The position numbers and the translations under genes are program-made. 64,000 nucleotides of DNA from Candidatus Magasanikiibacteriota bacterium (GTDB taxonomy: Bacteria; Patescibacteriota; Patescibacteriia; Magasanikbacterales; 2-02-FULL-50-9b). The stretch is from positions 7,252 to 71,251 of the forward strand of contig CALRDW010000002.1 in assembly GCA_943355025.1 (NCBI GenBank), in the 5' to 3' direction. This document shows, one piece after another, positions 1 through 31,218 of the stretch. Each line of letters starts with the position of its first letter. Position 1 is the stretch's first letter. The notes under the pieces are model-generated. The model saw only the letters and a program-made list of their open reading frames with translations, ran no database searches and was not told the DNA's origin.

Positions 1-47
1 GGCTTGAAAATGAATTCCATGATGAATATCAGCGGCAGATAAATTTA

Positions 48-884
48 TTGGAGATGCGAGGGTTTTTGGAGACTCAGGGCGGAAGAAGGGGAATAGCGGA
101 CGAGCAGGGAAATTTTTATCCAGTGCCTTCGGTCGGCAGTGTCATCGGACGCATCAAAGAAAAAGCAGCGATAATTCAGGAAAAGCGTGCGCAAGGGTTT
201 GAGCGATTTTTACTCGTGCCGTTTGCGTGTAGTCCGAACAAATTCGTTGATGCATACAATGAATATGTAGAGGAACATCCAGATGATTTATTTCAGAGGA
301 ATGGCAAGCCTGTTTCATTGGGGCGAGGAACCGGTGATCCAGCAATGATGCAATCCACTATATTTGGATCGCCGGTCCGCGAGTCACATTATTTTCCAAC
401 GAATTATGATTTTGCGGAAGAGGGTGAACTGCCTACAAAAGAAGAGGTGCTTGCAAAAAAGCAGGGGTCATCAAACAGTTTGTCATTTCCTGGATTTCAG
501 ATGTTATTTCTAGAAAATGATTTAGAAATGGAAGAAAAGTACATGCCGGACATTCCGGACGGTGGCCGTTCTCGGATCAAAAAGGGTAAATCACCGGAAG
601 AATATATGCAACTGCTCGCCGGGTCTCAGCAGTATGCTCACGAGCGCGGACTGACGATTGAGGAATATTTAACGCTTGCGCTTAATGAGCTGGTTTATGG
701 GAGAAAAATCTTAGATGGTGATATAGGGGGTCATGCGTGCATGCTGTTGGGATCATTTTTTTTGAGCATTGATTGCGTTCCATATATTTCGAGCGATCGC
801 ACTGGCGTTGTTTTTATAGGCAGTAGAGTTTCGAATACGCTTATGAGCGAGGATGACGGAATTCGTACGGTGGTTCAACTCTAG
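48..884 (+). CDS. hypothetical protein; member of a two-copy paralog family (second copy 29790..30992)
   Basis: 278-aa ORF. Three collinear similarity blocks with the 29754..30992 product: FERFLLVPFACS~FTRLLIVPFGTS; KGKSPEEYMQLL..ERGLTIEEYLTLAL~AGKSPNDYLELL..ELGLTPEDWLTLFA; GSFFLSIDCVPY~GSYFPDSDDVP. No recognisable catalytic motif. In-frame stop at 18..20, so the start is at TTG 42 or ATG 48. Confidence 0.5.
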   Translation: MEMRGFLETQGGRRGIADEQGNFYPVPSVGSVIGRIKEKAAIIQEKRAQGFERFLLVPFACSPNKFVDAYNEYVEEHPDDLFQRNGKPVSLGRGTGDPAMMQSTIFGSPVRESHYFPTNYDFAEEGELPTKEEVLAKKQGSSNSLSFPGFQMLFLENDLEMEEKYMPDIPDGGRSRIKKGKSPEEYMQLLAGSQQYAHERGLTIEEYLTLALNELVYGRKILDGDIGGHACMLLGSFFLSIDCVPYISSDRTGVVFIGSRVSNTLMSEDDGIRTVVQL

Positions 885-2427: not shown

Positions 2428-2458
2428 GCGCGTTTCTTAACCGAAGCGCGTTTTTTTA
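2428..2458 (+). terminator. rho-independent terminator after ORF 922..2421
   Basis: Stem cgcgtttc (2429..2436) / gaagcgcg (2443..2450): 8 bp including one G-U pair. Loop ttaacc. Followed by a T7 run at 2451..2457, directly after the stop codon. Confidence 0.5.
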
Positions 2459-2647
2459 TTTTCAACAGGATTCGGAGGTTTGCGAGCAATACAAAAACAG
2501 CGATTCAACAGAGGCCCAAAGAAAATAAAGTTGCCTCTCAGGGGGAGATGAACACGAGCCCCCGTCGAGACAACTTTATTTTCTTTGGGTATACGTTCAT
2601 TCGGGTGTTATACTGCTCCCATGCTTCCTAATCCTTTTGAAAAACTA
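2451..2647 (+). repeat. copy 1 of a ~195-bp direct repeat containing a nested covarying hairpin, an extended -10 box and an MLPNPF start codon
   Basis: Aligns base-for-base at ~80% identity with 29622..29818. Outer palindrome arms are cccaaagaaaataaagttg (2515..2533) and caactttattttctttggg (2571..2589). Inner stem is ggggg (2541..2545) / ccccc (2559..2563) around the loop agatgaacacgag. Downstream lie TGTTATACT (2606..2614) and an ATG at 2621 that opens a truncated MLPNPFEKLL... ORF ending at 2744..2746. Confidence 0.7.
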
Positions 2648-2705: not shown

Positions 2706-3641
2706 ATGTCAGAGACTGCACCAAAAACGATACTCCTTACCGGGAGTAGTGGAACCATAGGAACTCGGCTCGCAGAGCGCTTAATTGAGCGTGGATTCGA
2801 TTGTATCGCCGCCGATATCGTGCCGAATAGATGGAGTCGAATTGTAAATAAAAAAACAATTCACGTTGATCTGCGTGATGCGCGGGCGACGTTGAAAAAA
2901 TTACCGCGGGCTGTTGATTTGATCATGCACCTCGCCTCACATGCTCGTGTTTATAATTTGATACAAGAGCCGCGCTTGGCATTTGAAAATGTTCAAACCA
3001 CGGGGAATATTTTGGAGTATGCGCGCGAGCGCTCAATTTCACGGCTTATGTTTGCGTCATCGCGAGAGGTGTACGGAACGTTGGACAAAAAACAGACGCA
3101 CCACGGGGAAACAGATGTGAATATAGAACGCTGTGAAAATCCGTATGCTGCATCGAAAATTGCAGGCGAGGCGTTTATGCATGCGTATAAGCGGTGCTTT
3201 GGACTACGACCCGTGCTGTTTCGTTTCTCAAATGTTTATGGGAGATATGACATTAGCGACCGCATCATTCCCACATTTATTAAACTCATGCGCAGGAATA
3301 AAGACGTTACGATTTTTGGACGCAATAAACAGATGGATTTTACGTATATTGACGACGTAGTTGACGGAGTTATCGATTCACTTTCACACTTTTCTGTGAT
3401 TGAAGGTAAAAGTATTAATCTTGCAACGGGATCGGGAACCTCACTTCATGAACTTGCGGGCCTCATTCGGCGGGAGACTAACGCAACCTCAAAAATTATT
3501 ATGAAGCCGCATCGTATTGGCGAGGTAATTGCACACGTCGCTGATATCAGCGCAGCAAAGAAATTACTTCGGTTTAAATCAAAAACCTCGATTGAAGATG
3601 GTATTAAAAAAACAGTAGCCTGGTATTTAGAAAATACGTAA
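2706..3641 (+). CDS. NAD-dependent epimerase/dehydratase (extended SDR family, UDP-glucose 4-epimerase-like)
   Basis: N-terminal Rossmann motif ILLTGSSGTIGTRLAERLIERG. Catalytic YxxxK as YAASK. The track ORF starts at 2637 inside the repeat element. ATG 2706 (MSETAPK) gives a standard-length N-terminus. Confidence 0.8.
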   Translation: MSETAPKTILLTGSSGTIGTRLAERLIERGFDCIAADIVPNRWSRIVNKKTIHVDLRDARATLKKLPRAVDLIMHLASHARVYNLIQEPRLAFENVQTTGNILEYARERSISRLMFASSREVYGTLDKKQTHHGETDVNIERCENPYAASKIAGEAFMHAYKRCFGLRPVLFRFSNVYGRYDISDRIIPTFIKLMRRNKDVTIFGRNKQMDFTYIDDVVDGVIDSLSHFSVIEGKSINLATGSGTSLHELAGLIRRETNATSKIIMKPHRIGEVIAHVADISAAKKLLRFKSKTSIEDGIKKTVAWYLENT

Positions 3642-17029: not shown

Positions 17030-18016
17030 ATGAGATTTATTATTATTGGCGGAGGATCAATAGGCAAACGGCATCTCAGGAATCTGTTATCGCTTGGCGA
17101 ATCCGATATTGCTGTCGTTGAGCAGAACGCCGAACGCATGTCAGCCATTGCGGCGGAATTTAATATCAAAACATTTTCTTCGATGCGGCAAGCATTTGAA
17201 TCTGAAACATTTGAGTGCGCTTTTATTTGCTCACCTTCCCGATTCCATCAAGAACAAGCGTTGTATTGCGCTGACCATAAGTGCGATTTATTTATTGAAA
17301 AACCTCTTTCACATACAATGGATGGAATTTTTGAATTAAAAAATGTAATTGAAAAAAATAAATTAATAACAATGGTCGGGAGTAATTTTAAATTTTATCC
17401 ATCATTACAGAAAATTAAAAGCTTGTTGGATGCTGGGGCCATTGGAAAAATTCTTTCCGCGCGATTGCAGTTTGGACAATATTTGCCTGATTGGCATCCG
17501 TGGGAAGATTACCGACAGGGCTACAGTGCGAATGAGCGCCTCGGTGGTGGGGTGCTTCTTGATTCACACGAATTTGATTATGCGACCTGGCTGCTCGGGG
17601 ATGTGTCTAAAGTTACGTGCGTAGCAAAAAAAATAAGTGACCTTGAAATTGATGTTGAAGATGTTGCGGCAGTTATTTTGCACCTAAAAAGCGGAGCACT
17701 TGTTGAACTTCATCTCGATTATGTTCAGCGATTTTATAGCCGCTGTTATGAGTTTTTTGGTGAAACAGGGACAATCATGTGGGACATAAAAGAAAAAAAA
17801 GTTTTACTCAAAACCAAAGAAGCGGGCGAACAAATTTTTGAGCTCATTTCTGAATACGATTTTAATACCATGTATATAGATGAACTCAAACATTTTTTGG
17901 CGTGTGTTGAAGCGCGAAGTAATACAGTTTCAAGTGTAATTGTCGGAGCGCGCGTGCTCGAAATTATCACTGCAGCAAAAGAATCTTCGCTGAAAGAAAA
18001 AACGATTGAAGTATGA
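17030..18016 (+). CDS. Gfo/Idh/MocA family NAD(P)-dependent oxidoreductase
   Basis: MRFIIIGGGSIGKRHL Rossmann N-terminus and the C-terminal alpha/beta domain typical of this family. Confidence 0.8.
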   Translation: MRFIIIGGGSIGKRHLRNLLSLGESDIAVVEQNAERMSAIAAEFNIKTFSSMRQAFESETFECAFICSPSRFHQEQALYCADHKCDLFIEKPLSHTMDGIFELKNVIEKNKLITMVGSNFKFYPSLQKIKSLLDAGAIGKILSARLQFGQYLPDWHPWEDYRQGYSANERLGGGVLLDSHEFDYATWLLGDVSKVTCVAKKISDLEIDVEDVAAVILHLKSGALVELHLDYVQRFYSRCYEFFGETGTIMWDIKEKKVLLKTKEAGEQIFELISEYDFNTMYIDELKHFLACVEARSNTVSSVIVGARVLEIITAAKESSLKEKTIEV

Positions 18017-29621: not shown

Positions 29622-29818
29622 TTTTTTATTTTCAACAGAATTCGGAAGTTTATGAGTAGTTCAATACAGTGATTCAACATGCACCCAAAGAATTAAATAT
29701 TACTTCTCAGGGAGAGATGAACATGAGCTCCCGTCGAAGTAATATTTAATTCTTTGGGGATACGTTCATTCAGGTGTTATACTACTCCCATGCTTCCCAA
29801 TCCTTTTCAAAAACCTCT
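29622..29818 (+). repeat. copy 2 of the ~195-bp direct repeat / structured leader
   Basis: Arms cccaaagaattaaatattacttc (29684..29706) and gaagtaatatttaattctttggg (29736..29758) are perfect reverse complements. Inner stem gggag (29710..29714) / ctccc (29728..29732) surrounds the loop agatgaacatgag. TGTTATACT lies at 29775..29783 and the ATG at 29790. Confidence 0.7.
29775..29792 (+). promoter_or_regulatory. extended -10 promoter (TGnTATACT) positioned for a leaderless transcript starting at ATG 29790
   Basis: TG-T-TATACT, then 6 nt, then ATG. No Shine-Dalgarno is present. An identical arrangement is found at 2606..2623. Confidence 0.4.
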
Positions 29819-30992
29819 CACAGAGTTTAAAGACACAGATCCTCTTAAGAACAGAGAGATTGTTAGAGAACTTCTCGGACCAGAGGGAGTACATAAATAT
29901 AGAAAGATATTAGGAGACACTTCAGACCCTACTCCAAAGCGAGACAAAGAACTCTCTAAAGAAGATCTCCTTGCCATGGCGGCAGAAGCCCACTCTAAAA
30001 TAGATACACTGTCCAGAGACTCAGTAAAGCCAATCCTCGAGCGCCTCATAGAGCGCCAATACACTTCTCAGATCCAATCTCTGCAAGAGATTGGATTCCT
30101 AGAACCTCTCGTACCACAAAAAAAGAAAGGCTTTACCATTTTCAAATCAAAAGAACCAGAAGAAACTACACCAGAGAAACTAGGGGCTACAGACATCCTC
30201 GGTACCTTCCGAGAAGTTCCAACCGAAGAAGCCATCAAAAATCACTTCCTCTCCATTCCTAACATCAAACAAAAGATAGATCAAGGATTCACCCGACTTC
30301 TCATCGTTCCATTCGGAACTTCTCTCGACACCCTCCGCTCTAAAACAGGAGAGCTTATCAAGAAGCATAAGAAAGAAAACAAACTTCTCGCAGAAGATGG
30401 AACAGAATTAGAACTCGACACTACAACACCACTCTGGGCATGGGACGGCTATAACAACGCAGACAAGAGCGGGAAACTCGTCTATTACCCAGAGCAATTC
30501 AATAAAGAAAATCACAACGGTACAACTAAAACAGAACTCCTTTCGTCCACCCCGTCAAACCAAGCAAACTCTTCCACACCAAACACCAATCCATTCCCCG
30601 GCTACCATATTCTTCTTATTCAGGAAGACACACAGATTCCACGAGAAGGAAAGGGAACAGCAAAAGCAGGGAGAGATAAAATAGAAGCAGGTAAGTCTCC
30701 AAACGACTATTTAGAACTTCTAAGAACTGATCCTAACTACTCAAAAGAACTCGGTCTCACTCCAGAAGATTGGCTCACTCTCTTTGCAACGAATCTTAAT
30801 CAGAAGAACAAAGTTATTAATGACTGGCAGTCAAATAAAGACAGTATTAATTATCTAGTCGGTAGTTATTTTCCAGATTCTGACGACGTCCCGAACGCGT
30901 GCTGGGACCGTGGCGCTCGGCGGGCGCACTTGTACGGGGGCGAGCCGACGAACGCGTACGAGCATTTTGGCGTTGCTGGCGCGGTGGGGTGA
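29790..30992 (+). CDS. hypothetical protein; second member of the paralog family (see 48..884)
   Basis: Homology blocks listed under 48..884. The ATG at 29790 (MLPNPFQKP) is the one conserved in both repeat copies; track start 29754 lies inside the structured element. The last ~130 nt (DDVPNACWDRGARRAHLYGGEPTNAYEHFGVAGAVG) are sharply GC-rich, unlike the rest of the gene. Confidence 0.5.
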   Translation: MLPNPFQKPLTEFKDTDPLKNREIVRELLGPEGVHKYRKILGDTSDPTPKRDKELSKEDLLAMAAEAHSKIDTLSRDSVKPILERLIERQYTSQIQSLQEIGFLEPLVPQKKKGFTIFKSKEPEETTPEKLGATDILGTFREVPTEEAIKNHFLSIPNIKQKIDQGFTRLLIVPFGTSLDTLRSKTGELIKKHKKENKLLAEDGTELELDTTTPLWAWDGYNNADKSGKLVYYPEQFNKENHNGTTKTELLSSTPSNQANSSTPNTNPFPGYHILLIQEDTQIPREGKGTAKAGRDKIEAGKSPNDYLELLRTDPNYSKELGLTPEDWLTLFATNLNQKNKVINDWQSNKDSINYLVGSYFPDSDDVPNACWDRGARRAHLYGGEPTNAYEHFGVAGAVG

Positions 30993-31218
30993 ATTAAACT
31001 TTAATTTTTCATTCTTTCTTTAACTTTTATTTTTATTTTTACGGCGAAAAGTAACCTGCTGTGATGTAGGCTGCCGTAAATTCCGACGCTAGAGCAGTGT
31101 GGAAATTGTAAATATAAATATATTTTTACACCACTGAAGCCTAGGAGCAAAAGTAATTATAATCCCCACCGCTCCGTTGTGAAAAACATAAATCAACAGT
31201 AGTTGAGATTTCGGCAGA

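Follow-up and report, generated by a model that had tools for sequence, protein, structure and literature searches.

A 197-nt element that occurs at 2451-2647 and 29622-29818 of the window, by which we mean the whole 64-kb stretch of DNA analyzed here, raises the question of whether a long hairpin with mirrored changes in its two arms is a structured RNA leader, a device working in the DNA or a palindrome without function. The two segments had been described as ~80% identical, and pairwise alignment gives 81%; they are the sole copies of the element within the window, and their hairpins are the longest local inverted repeats of the 64 kb by a wide margin. Folded as RNA, the two 197-nt copies reach -78.8 and -67.7 kcal/mol (z = -8.4 and -8.1), and none of 200 shuffles folded as well, and z = -7.9 to -11 was obtained for DNA folds of the 75-77-nt hairpins. 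The structured part is not confined to the ~90 nt of the original prediction, since all 197 nt of the element form a quasi-palindrome that yields one rod extending to the start codon. The 3′ end of the element consists of the promoter and first codons of a real gene.

All features of the two copies are given on the plus strand. Copy 1 begins within the intrinsic terminator of the preceding 499-aa gene (2427-2462), in which a 10-pair stem (2427-2452) is followed by a T-run that forms the first bases of the element. A GC hairpin of differing sequence followed by the conserved TTTTTTATTTT also stands 5′ of copy 2, L024 and L001 12503. The 5′ flank of copy 1, or block A (2451-2514), holds TTCAAC repeats as well as the T-run, and ATTCAAC lies at 2503-2509. 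No other part of the element has diverged as far, the mean identity of the flank over four stem types being 65%, and block A is partly complementary to the promoter block. The outer stem is formed by the 5′ arm CCCAAAGAAAATAAAGTTGCCTC (2515-2537) and the 3′ arm GAGACAACTTTATTTTCTTTGGG (2567-2589), and consists of 19 bp, one C·A mismatch and 3 bp more. It encloses the apex (2538-2566), which reads TCA, GGGGG, the 13-nt loop AGATGAACACGAG, CCCCC and GTC. The final TTG of the 3′ arm begins a -35 hexamer, TTGGGT (2585-2590), and direct reading of the sequence places 18 nt between this hexamer and TATACT. The promoter block (2590-2620) carries GTTCATT at 2595-2601 and the extended -10 TGTTATACT at 2606-2614, which is followed by a 6-nt spacer. 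The orphan start of a family gene (2621-2656) then provides an ATG plus 12 codons (MLPNPFEKLLPQ), where homology to the paralog starts stops, and directly after it come a terminator-like hairpin and T-run (2648-2680; 8 pairs, then TTTTTGTTTT). An epimerase gene (2706-3641, Pfam Epimerase) has its ATG at 2706, downstream of the terminator-like hairpin, and copy 1 heads a glycosylation gene cluster.

In copy 2, block A (29622-29683) carries ATTCAAC at 29672-29678, and the 5′ arm CCCAAAGAATTAAATATTACTTC (29684-29706) pairs with the 3′ arm GAAGTAATATTTAATTCTTTGGG (29736-29758) in a perfect 23-bp stem around the apex (29707-29735), which reads TCA, GGGAG, the loop AGATGAACATGAG, CTCCC and GTC. The 3′ arm leads into a -35-like TTGGGG at 29754-29759, and the promoter block (29759-29789) has GTTCATT at 29764-29770 and TGTTATACT at 29775-29783, again with a 6-nt spacer. 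The arm sequences first quoted for the two copies are exact, but the perfect complementarity claimed for both holds for copy 2 alone, copy 1 having the C·A mismatch. The inner stems, GGGGG/CCCCC and GGGAG/CTCCC, and the 13-nt apical loop are as first described, whereas GTTCATT, then placed 20 nt downstream of the stem, actually lies 5 nt past the outer stem in both copies.

The element was thought to have two copies, which is true for the window only. At least 13 loci of one gene family were found in one Patescibacteria/CPR-like organism, at least 11 of them with the hairpin, and every hairpin copy but copy 1, which has its 12-codon remnant, is immediately followed by a paralog of the 400-aa gene at 29790-30992. 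When 207 kb of the same organism was searched with nhmmer and a covariance model, only loci 5′ of family genes or of the remnant matched. All of the recovered contigs belong to the same sample set and are short-read metagenome assemblies with k = 141, in which repeats of more than 100 bp may produce chimeric joins. It is thus well supported that the element serves a paralogous gene family as its shared 5′ control module, and equally well supported that copy 1 is a member of this family truncated after 12 codons with its promoter and hairpin intact. The order of the module is a T-run corresponding to the U-tract of the upstream terminator, a drifting 5′ flank ending in ATTCAAC, the 5′ arm of the outer stem, the apex, the 3′ arm with the TTG of the -35 at its base, an 18-nt spacer, the extended -10, 6 nt and the ATG. 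The outer stem is AT-rich and free in sequence with complementary arms, and the apex comprises 29 nt, namely TCA, a 5-bp GC stem, the 13-nt loop and GTC.

Beyond this organism, DNA pattern scans with the promoter block and apex gave 0 matches in viral contigs and one random, unrelated match in JGI metagenomes, and viral contigs compared with the protein alignment of the family yielded no relatives. A protein-guided scan of GTDB species genomes gave distant homologs only (26-41% identity), none with the hairpin, in MAGs of Berkel-, Gottesman-, Magasanikii- and Saccharibacteria, and the Patescibacteria/CPR affiliation of the organism follows from this spread of homologs. Exact look-ups of the window's own protein and of P0011 gave no record. 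Because the pattern scans gave no true matches elsewhere, the element could not be traced beyond one organism, and its evolutionary depth is therefore small.

This distribution bears directly on the idea that the element is a miniature mobile element of the MITE, Correia or REP type, with terminal inverted repeats and a chance outward promoter. Its length of 195 bp, long hairpin, ~80% complementary ends (TTTTCAACAGGATTCGGAGG against CTTCCTAATCCTTTTGAAAA) and multiple copies in the genome would suit such an element. Nevertheless, all copies have one orientation and are attached to a family gene, and the "right end" encodes MLPNPF; the gene-less copy keeps codons 9-12, which lie past the palindrome, and hence represents a truncated gene. 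Furthermore, the flanks show no target-site duplication, the copies are 65-94% identical rather than near-identical, the pattern scans gave no matches in viral contigs and the single random match in JGI metagenomes, and every copy in the 207 kb searched is 5′ of a family gene or the 12-codon remnant, none being at an unrelated locus. A mobile origin of this kind is very improbable and can be regarded as largely refuted.

With more copies, the claim that stem complementarity is kept through mirrored changes became stronger. The outer stem exists in four independent full versions of 22-24 bp, perfect or with one mismatch, and at least two Watson-Crick pair types occur at 15 of the 29 pairs, which are thus changed on both sides. 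Folds of individual copies are perfect or near perfect in W1, W2, L001 (the same as in L017), L004 and L020, and have one C·A mismatch in L019 and L027b. Independent events are fewer than copies, because L001, L017 and L020 share identical arms. Stability is near constant among the four stem types (n = 4); their RNA folds range from -38.9 to -40.0 kcal/mol and their DNA folds from -24.3 to -24.5 kcal/mol. Segment identities among these types are 0.89 for the apex, 0.91 for the promoter block and 0.94 for the first 120 nt of the coding sequence, against 0.70-0.72 for the arms and 0.65 for the 5′ flank, so that the apex is a conserved island between drifting but complementary arms; across copies the apex is 89-94% and the promoter block 91-94% identical. 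The both-side change at position 4 of the inner stem, G-C against A-T, is unique to copy 1. The C·A mismatch of copy 1 occurs at the same stem position in the P0015 copy, while the arms of these two otherwise differ by several mirrored changes. Internal mismatches comprise three C·A (G·U on the minus strand) against one T·G, and plus- and minus-strand energies are within 1-4 kcal/mol of each other, so that neither strand is favored for a possible RNA.

The hairpin is not uniform throughout the family. The P0020 copy has a 110-nt GC-rich multibranch apex with a dG of -75 kcal/mol, P0019 has only a 10-bp stem, and P0017 and the second gene of the P0015 unit are without the hairpin. L016 combines an L004-type 5′ arm and an L001-type 3′ arm with a duplicated apex between them, and L001 12503 is a degenerate or half copy. 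An apparent "X" insertion at the loop of L016 and L001 12503 proved on inspection to be degenerate or duplicated apex and arm, and not a foreign element. An identical protein, P0016, stands behind two upstream contexts in L019 and L020, the last difference between them lying in the 5′ arm. Beside the hairpin, ~30 bp of upstream sequence and 120 bp of coding sequence are homogenized among paralogs that are otherwise 42-87% identical, and codons 2-8 have fixed synonymous codons (CTT CCY AAY CCT) in the element-bearing paralogs only.

The original prediction took the covariation as a signature of selection on secondary structure. The mirrored changes are real, but template-switch correction in palindromes can mimic "compensatory" evolution without any selection. 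Indeed, quasi-palindromes are template-switch mutation hotspots and grow more perfect (PMC7202029). The palindrome may be functionless, an ancestral inverted duplication of the promoter region that reached the various paralogs through gene conversion of their 5′ tract and whose arms are kept complementary by intramolecular template switching at replication. The 5′ flank indeed resembles a degenerate inverted copy of the promoter and gene start, complementarity, perfect close to the axis, falls off with distance from it, and the arms diverge about as much as the unconstrained 5′ flank. The concerted evolution of the 5′ tract, the retention of the hairpin with unique mirrored changes in the orphan copy 1, whose gene is gone, and the missing, shortened, expanded or duplicated hairpins of some paralogs would all be expected as well. 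However, patchy conversion poorly explains the 29-nt apex island (0.89-0.94) between diverged arms, and fast indiscriminate correction should have erased the C·A mismatch shared by copy 1 and the P0015 copy. Besides, stem length and stability are near identical in four versions of different sequence, and long palindromes are normally unstable, yet this one has been retained at at least 10 loci. Absence of function is therefore a credible but rather unlikely explanation.

Whether the structure would be part of the mRNA depends on where transcription begins. TGTTATACT stands 6 nt before the ATG in every hairpin copy, P0017 keeps TGCTATACT although it lacks the hairpin, and in several distant homologs of other phyla a TGTTAAAAT -10 box lies 7-8 nt before the ATG. 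Upstream of starts, the pattern TGnTAnn(A/C)T has a density of 2.27 per kb, 5.5-fold the overall figure of 0.41 per kb, and its gaps are 5-15 nt; Shine-Dalgarno sites are almost absent from the genome. These promoter calls apply E. coli-type consensus logic to an uncultured lineage. The ATG itself is real, as homologs as distant as 36% identity retain the family N-terminus MLPNPF. Since the -10 is 6 nt before the ATG, no Shine-Dalgarno sequence is present and other genes have gaps of 5-15 nt, the family mRNA is probably leaderless.

Upstream of the hairpin, a comparison of the copies found no copy-conserved -10 with T at position 6, and a terminator scan found intrinsic terminators adjoining the 5′ end of the element. 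A minus-strand TTGAAT-17-TATAAA box is present in the 5′ flank of 7 of 10 copies; because its position 6 is not a T and copy 1 does not conserve it, it was not counted as a promoter. Nor is the hairpin itself an intrinsic terminator, for what comes after the 3′ arm is TATACGTTC on the plus strand and CGTAAGTTG-type sequence on the minus strand, with no U-run, and around copy 1 the terminator scan called only the separate hairpins at 2427-2452 and 2649-2670. Because the -35 and -10 are downstream of it, terminators abut the element and no copy-conserved promoter precedes the hairpin, the latter, which spans -107 to -32 with its center near -70, is most likely promoter-upstream DNA outside the mRNA and not a 5′ UTR, judging from sequence features.

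The same features weigh on the structured cis-regulatory RNA leader that was originally proposed. In such a leader or 5′-terminal hairpin, a second promoter upstream or read-through would transcribe the whole rod; the stem might then act as an RNase III-type target or 5′ stabilizer, and pairing between the flank and the gene start would hide the AUG. A variable complementary helix with a conserved apex is typical of protein-binding RNA hairpins, RNA hairpins form readily whereas large-loop cruciforms do not, and the multibranch apex of the P0020 copy looks RNA-like; the synonymous codons fixed at positions 2-8 in element-bearing paralogs only would also be understandable. The outer rod, in which the 5′ flank pairs with the -10, start-site and first-codon region, makes 155-190 nt into one rod including the AUG, with 95% of its cells paired against 32-40% in slid controls and two both-side changes in copy 1, but its covariation is not significant, as 63 of 500 shuffles matched it. 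Against a leader, the conserved extended -10 and -35 follow the hairpin and put the ATG at the predicted +1, and terminators stand directly upstream in co-directional contexts. At L001, L004, L017 and L022 the upstream genes are divergent and provide no source of read-through, and the -10 candidates of the 5′ flank, TATAAG and TACAAT or TTCAAT, are either without key positions or unconserved, with none present in copy 1.

Comparison with known and predicted RNA structures likewise speaks against a leader. The original prediction could match the fold to no riboswitch or leader family, and no Rfam family fits: only the tRNA was detected over the whole window at the gathering threshold, and in E-value mode copy 2, L016, L022 and L024 gave only one weak P1 match and sub-threshold microRNA-precursor matches, which are generic hairpins (31 bits, where the gathering score is 59). 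The pseudoknot suggested between the loop (GATGAAC) and GTTCATT did not hold up either: six of its pairs are invariant, and the central pair is G-C in two copies and becomes A·C in the other five of seven, without compensation and with no both-side changes. Both parts of the RNA-leader reading, transcription of the rod and its action as an RNase III-type target, stabilizer or AUG-hiding structure, are accordingly unlikely.

The operator that had been offered as the alternative pointed in the direction now favored, a role at the DNA level; a duplex operator, however, leaves the need for complementary variable arms unexplained. Our preference, which is a tentative one, is for a structure-constrained palindrome in promoter-upstream DNA. 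In duplex form, the 3′ arm would supply the -35 and AT-rich upstream DNA, and the conserved apex, at about -70, would be a candidate protein site. Intrastrand pairing of the arms would remove the -35 and the upstream region from the duplex, either in a cruciform driven by negative supercoiling behind an active promoter or in a hairpin on transiently single-stranded DNA. The outcome might be a structure- or supercoiling-sensitive control common to the whole family, in which arm complementarity would be kept by selection on structure, aided by template-switch correction in the palindrome. Several points speak against this DNA-level role. First, cruciform extrusion is kinetically disfavored by the 13-nt non-palindromic loop and the 3 × 3 internal loops at the center, and we know of no natural bacterial promoter that is firmly established to use cruciform extrusion in this manner. 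Second, the outer-rod pairing across the element would suit an RNA spanning the whole element better. Third, P0017 and the second gene of the P0015 unit manage without the hairpin and P0019 with a 10-bp stem. Finally, the promoter calls lean on an E. coli-type consensus in an uncultured lineage.

What the promoter-upstream palindrome would control is a variable protein family. The family gene behind copy 2, P0001 (29790-30992, plus strand), encodes 400 aa with the N-terminus MLPNPFQKPL; its sequence has no match in Pfam, NCBIfam or PDB, but an AF2 model (pLDDT 83.6) gives a C-type-lectin-like fold in the C-terminal part, and the family alignment shows that the last ~45 aa are hypervariable. 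A lectin-fold protein with a C-terminal hypervariable region is what is found in targets of a diversity-generating retroelement (DGR), and DGR variable proteins with the C-type-lectin fold are known (PMC11661182, PMC8144416). The 3′ end of the gene resembles a DGR variable repeat (VR) with a tail like the IMH, the DGR homing signal (30875-31009, plus strand; tail GGGGTGAATTAAACTTTAATTTTT at 30986-31009), and aligns with L001 7355-7475, an AAC-rich, non-coding segment that is template-repeat-like (TR-like). This VR-like end lies outside the hairpin element and marks what the element controls. Compared with the ends of P0007 and P0002, 20 of 27 and 21 of 26 TR-like adenines are mismatched, against 15 of 72 and 11 of 72 other bases; for P0001 the bias is weaker (13 of 34 against 14 of 84), and with non-adenine mismatches present the pairs are not pristine. 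Such adenine-biased mismatches with a TR-like partner are the signature of a DGR, here a putative one, and a search of all frames of the window and the fetched loci for YxDD with an upstream SQ motif, as in a DGR reverse transcriptase, detected none. A distant paralog of the family, detected by tblastn and cut by the window edge, lies at 3-884 (plus strand); this gene, the second in a unit of two, lacks its own copy of the element, and its full context is found at L006 1226-2365, where it follows P0015 after 10 nt.

A further reading is that the element is a structure-specific recombination site or initiator, at which attC-like recognition or non-B cutting would start exchange or gene conversion among paralogs. 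Junctions at the apex in rearranged copies (the hybrid arms of L016 and the half copy L001 12503), the two upstream contexts of P0016 with their last difference in the 5′ arm, and the arm mismatch of L019 and L027b, which fits hybrid arms, would be consistent with it, as would the homogenized ~30 bp of upstream and 120 bp of coding sequence and the position of ATTCAAC, which lies 5 nt before the stem and fits the attC R″ consensus RYYYAAC. The R′ side does not follow, since GTTCATT/GTTCACT fails GTTRRRY at two of the three purine positions and R″/R′ pair at 5 of 7; the stems are without bulged, extrahelical bases, the loci are dispersed among housekeeping genes with no cassette arrays, and no integrase or recombinase was seen among the called genes of the window and fetched loci. 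Moreover, the rearranged copies come from the k = 141 short-read assemblies, in which such repeats may join chimerically, homologous recombination in the 39-bp identical apex would yield the same hybrids, and the matched arms of most copies mean that apex exchange must be rare. A recombination site is thus improbable. Slightly less so, but still distinctly unlikely, is a non-B DNA device serving the hypervariable family, in which a site upstream of every paralog, recognized by its stem shape and conserved 29-nt apex, would trigger gene conversion or exchange of the 5′ module, much as the pilE G4 or attC sites do, or in which all family promoters would be gated by supercoiling-driven cruciform extrusion that swallows the -35.

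If such a non-B device were true, it would tie a DNA secondary structure to how the DGR-type lectin-fold proteins of a CPR episymbiont are expressed or diversified. A functional hairpin would be a rare example from nature of intrastrand pairing in promoter DNA, or of a hairpin recognized by its shape, controlling a hypervariable surface or ligand-binding protein family, here in an organism from a group that has no cultures yet. It would also bring together at one family targeted variation of two kinds, in a DGR-like variable C-terminus and in a homogenized 5′ module prone to recombination. For genome scans, mirrored substitutions in a promoter-adjacent DNA palindrome do not by themselves prove RNA structure, and promoter position and template-switch correction should be weighed first.

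Several known systems share parts of this arrangement. Like integron attC sites, the element conserves structure and length while the stem sequence is free, has a conserved 7-mer outside the stem (ATTCAAC, resembling R″) with a small unpaired spacer between, and has a terminal structure that varies between copies, being a short loop in L024 and as elaborate as a branched domain in L022. Unlike in attC sites, the apex is conserved rather than variable, and the hairpin is 5′ of a gene and overlaps its promoter. Correia elements of Neisseria, ERIC and REP/BIME are multicopy quasi-palindromes of ~100-200 bp that may supply a -35 or -10 and form RNase III-sensitive hairpins when transcribed; they are autonomous repeats at scattered, unrelated loci with target duplications, whereas the present element is bound to one gene family, holds its first codons and has no independent copies. 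In the mpl family of Mycoplasma penetrans, inverted repeats flank an invertible promoter of at least about 135 bp that is found in both orientations. As in mpl, each member of a variable-protein family has its own promoter module bounded by inverted repeats, and the 5′ ends of the genes are homogenized. An invertible promoter was nevertheless rejected here, as only 29 bp separate the arms, these enclose no promoter and the apex has one orientation in all of the at least 11 copies.

Closer to the DNA-level reading favored here are promoters that themselves contain a hairpin or palindrome. The virion RNA polymerase of phage N4 recognizes hairpins with 5-7-bp stems as the promoter itself, and Horwitz and Loeb reportedly obtained in 1988 an engineered, artificial E. 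coli bla promoter with a palindromic -35 region. As in these, the palindrome overlaps core or upstream promoter DNA, and intrastrand pairing would alter its availability with supercoiling; unlike these, which have short loops, the present element has a 24-bp stem with a 35-nt apical domain, from which extrusion is putative. Cruciform- and hairpin-dependent promoters have been reviewed (PMC3176155, PMC9180970).

The final two parallels concern variable proteins, as the present family does. At pilE of Neisseria, a G4 lies upstream of the single pilin expression locus, to which silent donors belong. The element would likewise place a non-B DNA structure just 5′ of the promoter of a variable protein, where it could initiate gene conversion among paralogs; it differs in being a hairpin and not a G4 and in that each paralog has its own copy, and recombination is hinted at by assembly variants only. 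DGR targets need a nearby DNA hairpin or cruciform, and the DGR of Bordetella phage BPP-1 has a short (~8 bp) GC-rich hairpin 3′ of its variable repeat. The hairpin described here is, by contrast, 24 bp long and AT-rich and stands at the gene's 5′ end, ~1.1 kb distant, but as in DGR targets, the family downstream of it has the DGR-target fold and a TR-like partner with adenine-biased mismatches.

The segments at window positions 2451-2647 (copy 1) and 29622-29818 (copy 2) align at 81% identity, and the 64-kb window holds no further copies. The outer stem of copy 1 pairs 2515-2537 with 2567-2589 (19 bp, one C·A mismatch, 3 bp) and that of copy 2 pairs 29684-29706 with 29736-29758 over 23 perfect base pairs, with exactly the arm sequences given in the original prediction. 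Both stems enclose an apex of TCA, a 5-bp GC stem (GGGGG/CCCCC or GGGAG/CTCCC), a 13-nt loop and GTC. These hairpins are by a wide margin the longest local inverted repeats of the 64 kb; as RNA, the 197-nt segments fold with z = -8.4 and -8.1, and as DNA the 75-77-nt hairpins reach z = -7.9 to -11. In the folds, the entire 197 nt forms a single rod, the 5′ flank being partly complementary to the 3′ flank.

Copy 2 continues into an ORF of 400 aa, from ATG 29790 to 30992 (P0001), for which 27 homolog clusters were found. Because the homolog N-terminus, MLPNPF(Q/E)KPL..., is almost invariant even at 36% identity, ATG 29790 is the real start, and the final 28 nt of the "element" are therefore codons 1-9. 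All homolog contigs examined trace to a single sample set (ENA ERZ27280326 and ERZ27280297; Logan ERR5863107 and ERR5863128; MAG GCA_943359715.1), and on one of them, L004, the gene order extends the window beyond its right end. Sequence inspection, nhmmer and a covariance model of the element (R1) located the module upstream of the genes for P0007 (L001 5828-6029), P0008 (L004, GTG start), P0014 (L017), P0015 (L006, cut by the contig end) and P0016 (L019 and L020, in two differing upstream contexts) and of a cut gene (L027 6416-6516). Variant modules precede P0002 (L016), P0019 (L024) and P0020 (L022), and a degenerate copy lies at L001 12503. The family gene P0017 is without a module and keeps TGCTATACT with a leader of 38 nt; nor does one precede the second gene in the P0015 unit, the paralog that the window edge cuts (3-884). 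The covariance model over 207 kb found no copy apart from family genes, the 12-codon remnant included, pattern scans of viral contigs gave 0 matches, that of JGI metagenomes gave no element copy and 1 random match, and the hairpin is missing from distant homologs in other CPR phyla. The notion of a two-copy element thus holds for the window alone, as the module is common to many paralogs of the family; a mobile hairpin of the MITE type is effectively refuted.

Every hairpin-bearing copy has TGTTATACT (or TGCTATACT), 6 nt and then ATG or GTG. The hexamer 18 nt upstream of this -10 is TTGAGT, TTGGGT or TTGGGG, and the sequence shows its TTG to be the final paired bases of the 3′ arm; that this arm supplies the TTG of the -35 explains the conservation of the stem base CYCAAA/TTTGRG. 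Since Shine-Dalgarno sequences are almost absent from the genome and TGnTAnn(A/C)T, at 2.27 per kb in the 60 nt before starts vs 0.41 per kb overall, lies only 5-15 nt from the start codon (e.g., TGCTACAAT + 5 nt, TGCTATAAT + 7 nt), mRNAs with no leader or a very short one seem widespread in this organism. Extended -10 boxes (TGnTAnnnT) are seen 5-15 nt before starts across the window, e.g., at 17030, 55776 and 11368, and TGTTAAAAT stands 7-8 nt before the ATG in distant homologs of other phyla. We infer from sequence that the family mRNA is leaderless or nearly so, which would place the hairpin at -107 to -32 relative to a start at the ATG, with its center near -70. On the minus strand, the flank left of the hairpin carries TTGAAT-17 nt-TATAAA in 7/10 copies (e.g., L001 5862-5892; window 29648-29678), a mirror-image promoter-like box that is directed away from the family gene, is without T at position 6 and is not present in copy 1.

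Consistent transcription of the hairpin is unlikely, because in co-directional contexts the upstream terminator ends in the initial T-run of the element, the upstream gene is divergent at four loci, and the 5′ flank has no conserved -10 carrying the essential positions. An RNA leader or 5′ hairpin made from an upstream start would agree with the RNA-like architecture and with a rod that extends to the AUG, but the layout of promoter and terminator argues against it, and we regard it as unlikely. The original prediction of a structured cis-regulatory RNA is only partly right: it stands as to the maintained structure and probably not as to a transcribed riboregulator, and the element is instead a gene-family module lying upstream of the promoter.

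The stem occurs in four independent full-length versions (copy 1, copy 2, L001 and L004), with arms of 23-24 nt that are perfect or have one mismatch; the L017 stem equals that of L001, the L020 stem differs from it by one T·G, and those of L019 and L027b have one C·A mismatch each. Maintenance of the structure is borne out by the model-guided alignment, in which at least two Watson-Crick pair types occur at 15/29 pairs, 14 of them in the outer stem. The one inner-stem pair that varies reads G-C in copy 1 against A-T in the others, one indel is mirrored across both arms, and the stability of the four stem types is nearly constant (-38.9 to -40.0 kcal/mol as RNA, -24.3 to -24.5 kcal/mol as DNA). 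Mean identity among the four types is 0.65 in the 5′ flank, 0.70-0.72 in the arms, 0.89 in the 29-nt apex, 0.91 in the promoter block and 0.94 in the first 120 nt of coding sequence; the apex is thus a conserved island flanked by drifting yet complementary arms. The proposed pseudoknot between the loop and GTTCATT did not hold up, as covariation is absent and the central pair is A·C in 5/7 copies; GTTCATT lies 5 nt past the outer stem rather than 20 nt. In the outer rod, the 5′ flank pairs with the -10, start-site and first-codon region in 95% of cells, vs 32-40% in slid controls, and both-side changes number just two, both in copy 1, which 63/500 shuffles equalled. This complementarity is real and may be a mere trace of an old inverted duplication.

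Among the variants, P0019 has just the 10-bp stem base left, P0002 carries its apex twice, flanked by one arm each of two types, and P0020 has a 13-bp outer stem in which a 110-nt GC-rich multibranch domain (dG -75 kcal/mol) with no match in Rfam takes the place of the apex. In this copy (L022 2186-2320), the replacement forms a three-way structure with perfect local hairpins, CGATTTTCT/AGAAAATCG and GTCTTGC/GCAAGAC, enclosed by CTCTCGGCGCTG/CAGCGCC..CGAGAG. Quasi-palindromes are known template-switch hotspots (PMC7202029), and a functionless palindrome, perfected by template-switch correction and spread via gene conversion, would account for pairing that decays with distance from the axis, for a hairpin in the orphan copy 1 that is still perfect save one C·A mismatch, and for paralogs without the hairpin. 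Against this reading, which is somewhat unlikely, stand the conserved apex island, a persistent mismatch common to copies and the constant stem length. The hairpin might instead be a recombination site or initiator, in keeping with copies that are hybrid or duplicated and joined at the apex, and with P0016 behind two upstream contexts. Chimeras of short-read assembly or plain homologous exchange would give the same picture, and this role is improbable. At L019 9829-10029 and L020 3315-3509, identical P0016 genes with identical downstream genes have different upstream neighborhoods in two assemblies (an HD-domain gene vs the exonuclease VII small subunit), the last difference falling in the 5′ arm of the hairpin; the cause is either a genuine rearrangement at the element or a repeat that produced a chimeric assembly.

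Copy 1 has the same gene start, but its homology ends past codon 12 (MLPNPFEKLLPQ), directly followed by a terminator-like hairpin at 2648-2670. From the shared start and this loss of homology, copy 1 is a truncated family gene that retains the upstream module. The epimerase gene (ATG 2706) is the first of a ~25-kb glycosylation cluster with a GC content of 0.40-0.44, vs 0.47-0.49 in the flanks, and an apparently intact promoter, the 12-codon start and the terminator-like hairpin (2621-2706) precede its ATG. The orphan could be a candidate promoter or attenuator for this cluster or, alternatively, the source of a ~55-nt RNA with the 5′ end common to all family mRNAs. Its 5′ flank (2465-2499) is 74% complementary over 35 nt to 2675-2709, just 5′ of the epimerase start, where the sequence resembles a degenerate TGTTATACT..CCCAT promoter block; this may be meaningless, as chance pairs elsewhere in the window are similarly strong.

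The 5′ coding tract (first 120 nt, e.g., window 29790-29909, L001 6001-6120 and L022 2361-2480) is near-identical in nucleotides even where paralog proteins share just 42% identity, which points to concerted evolution. Paralogs 42-87% identical as proteins show ~94% nucleotide identity over codons 1-40 and a collapse beyond, and element-less paralogs encode the same MLPNPFEK with different synonymous codons. The final ~45 residues are hypervariable among paralogs. A non-coding AAC-rich segment, L001 7355-7475, 240 nt downstream of P0007 on the 90-kb contig that also holds the window, aligns to family gene ends with 74-81% of its adenines mismatched vs 15-21% of other bases (P0007, P0002), and its tail matches 23/24 positions at window 30986-31009, just past the P0001 stop. 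Judged from the alignments, such a partner with adenine-biased mismatches is the signature of a putative diversity-generating retroelement; the window and homolog loci contain no reverse transcriptase. Between P0007 and this template-repeat-like segment, immediately 5′ of a ATTATAAT box, an imperfect hairpin that shares the stem base CTCAAAAAG...TTTGAG (L001 7196-7265, fold z = -3.8) may be distantly related to the module. P0001 has no sequence match in Pfam, NCBIfam or PDB; the unnamed protein core (residues ~80-400) is widespread, with 886 representatives at 50% clustering (E below 1e-30 for 475), and is sometimes the C-terminal domain of 700-900-aa proteins. Family genes often adjoin envelope glycosylation genes (L024, L027, L019/L020 and window 2706-28162), including DegT aminotransferase and epimerase, GT1/GT4 and Bac_transf, methyltransferase, GT2 and NeuB, and PMT_2, a neighborhood that may tie these lectin-fold variable proteins to surface glycans.

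The element is firmly a family promoter module whose structure-constrained palindrome overlaps the -35. A role at the DNA level ranks as the most likely mechanism, if a tentative one. In duplex form, the module would present the -35 together with AT-rich DNA upstream of it and, at -70, a conserved candidate site. Intrastrand pairing would withdraw all three from the duplex, whether as a hairpin in single strands or as a cruciform under the negative supercoiling that trails an active promoter; the large apical loop disfavors cruciform extrusion. Compared with known systems, it matches no described family and is a promoter-associated palindromic element known from a single uncultured lineage.
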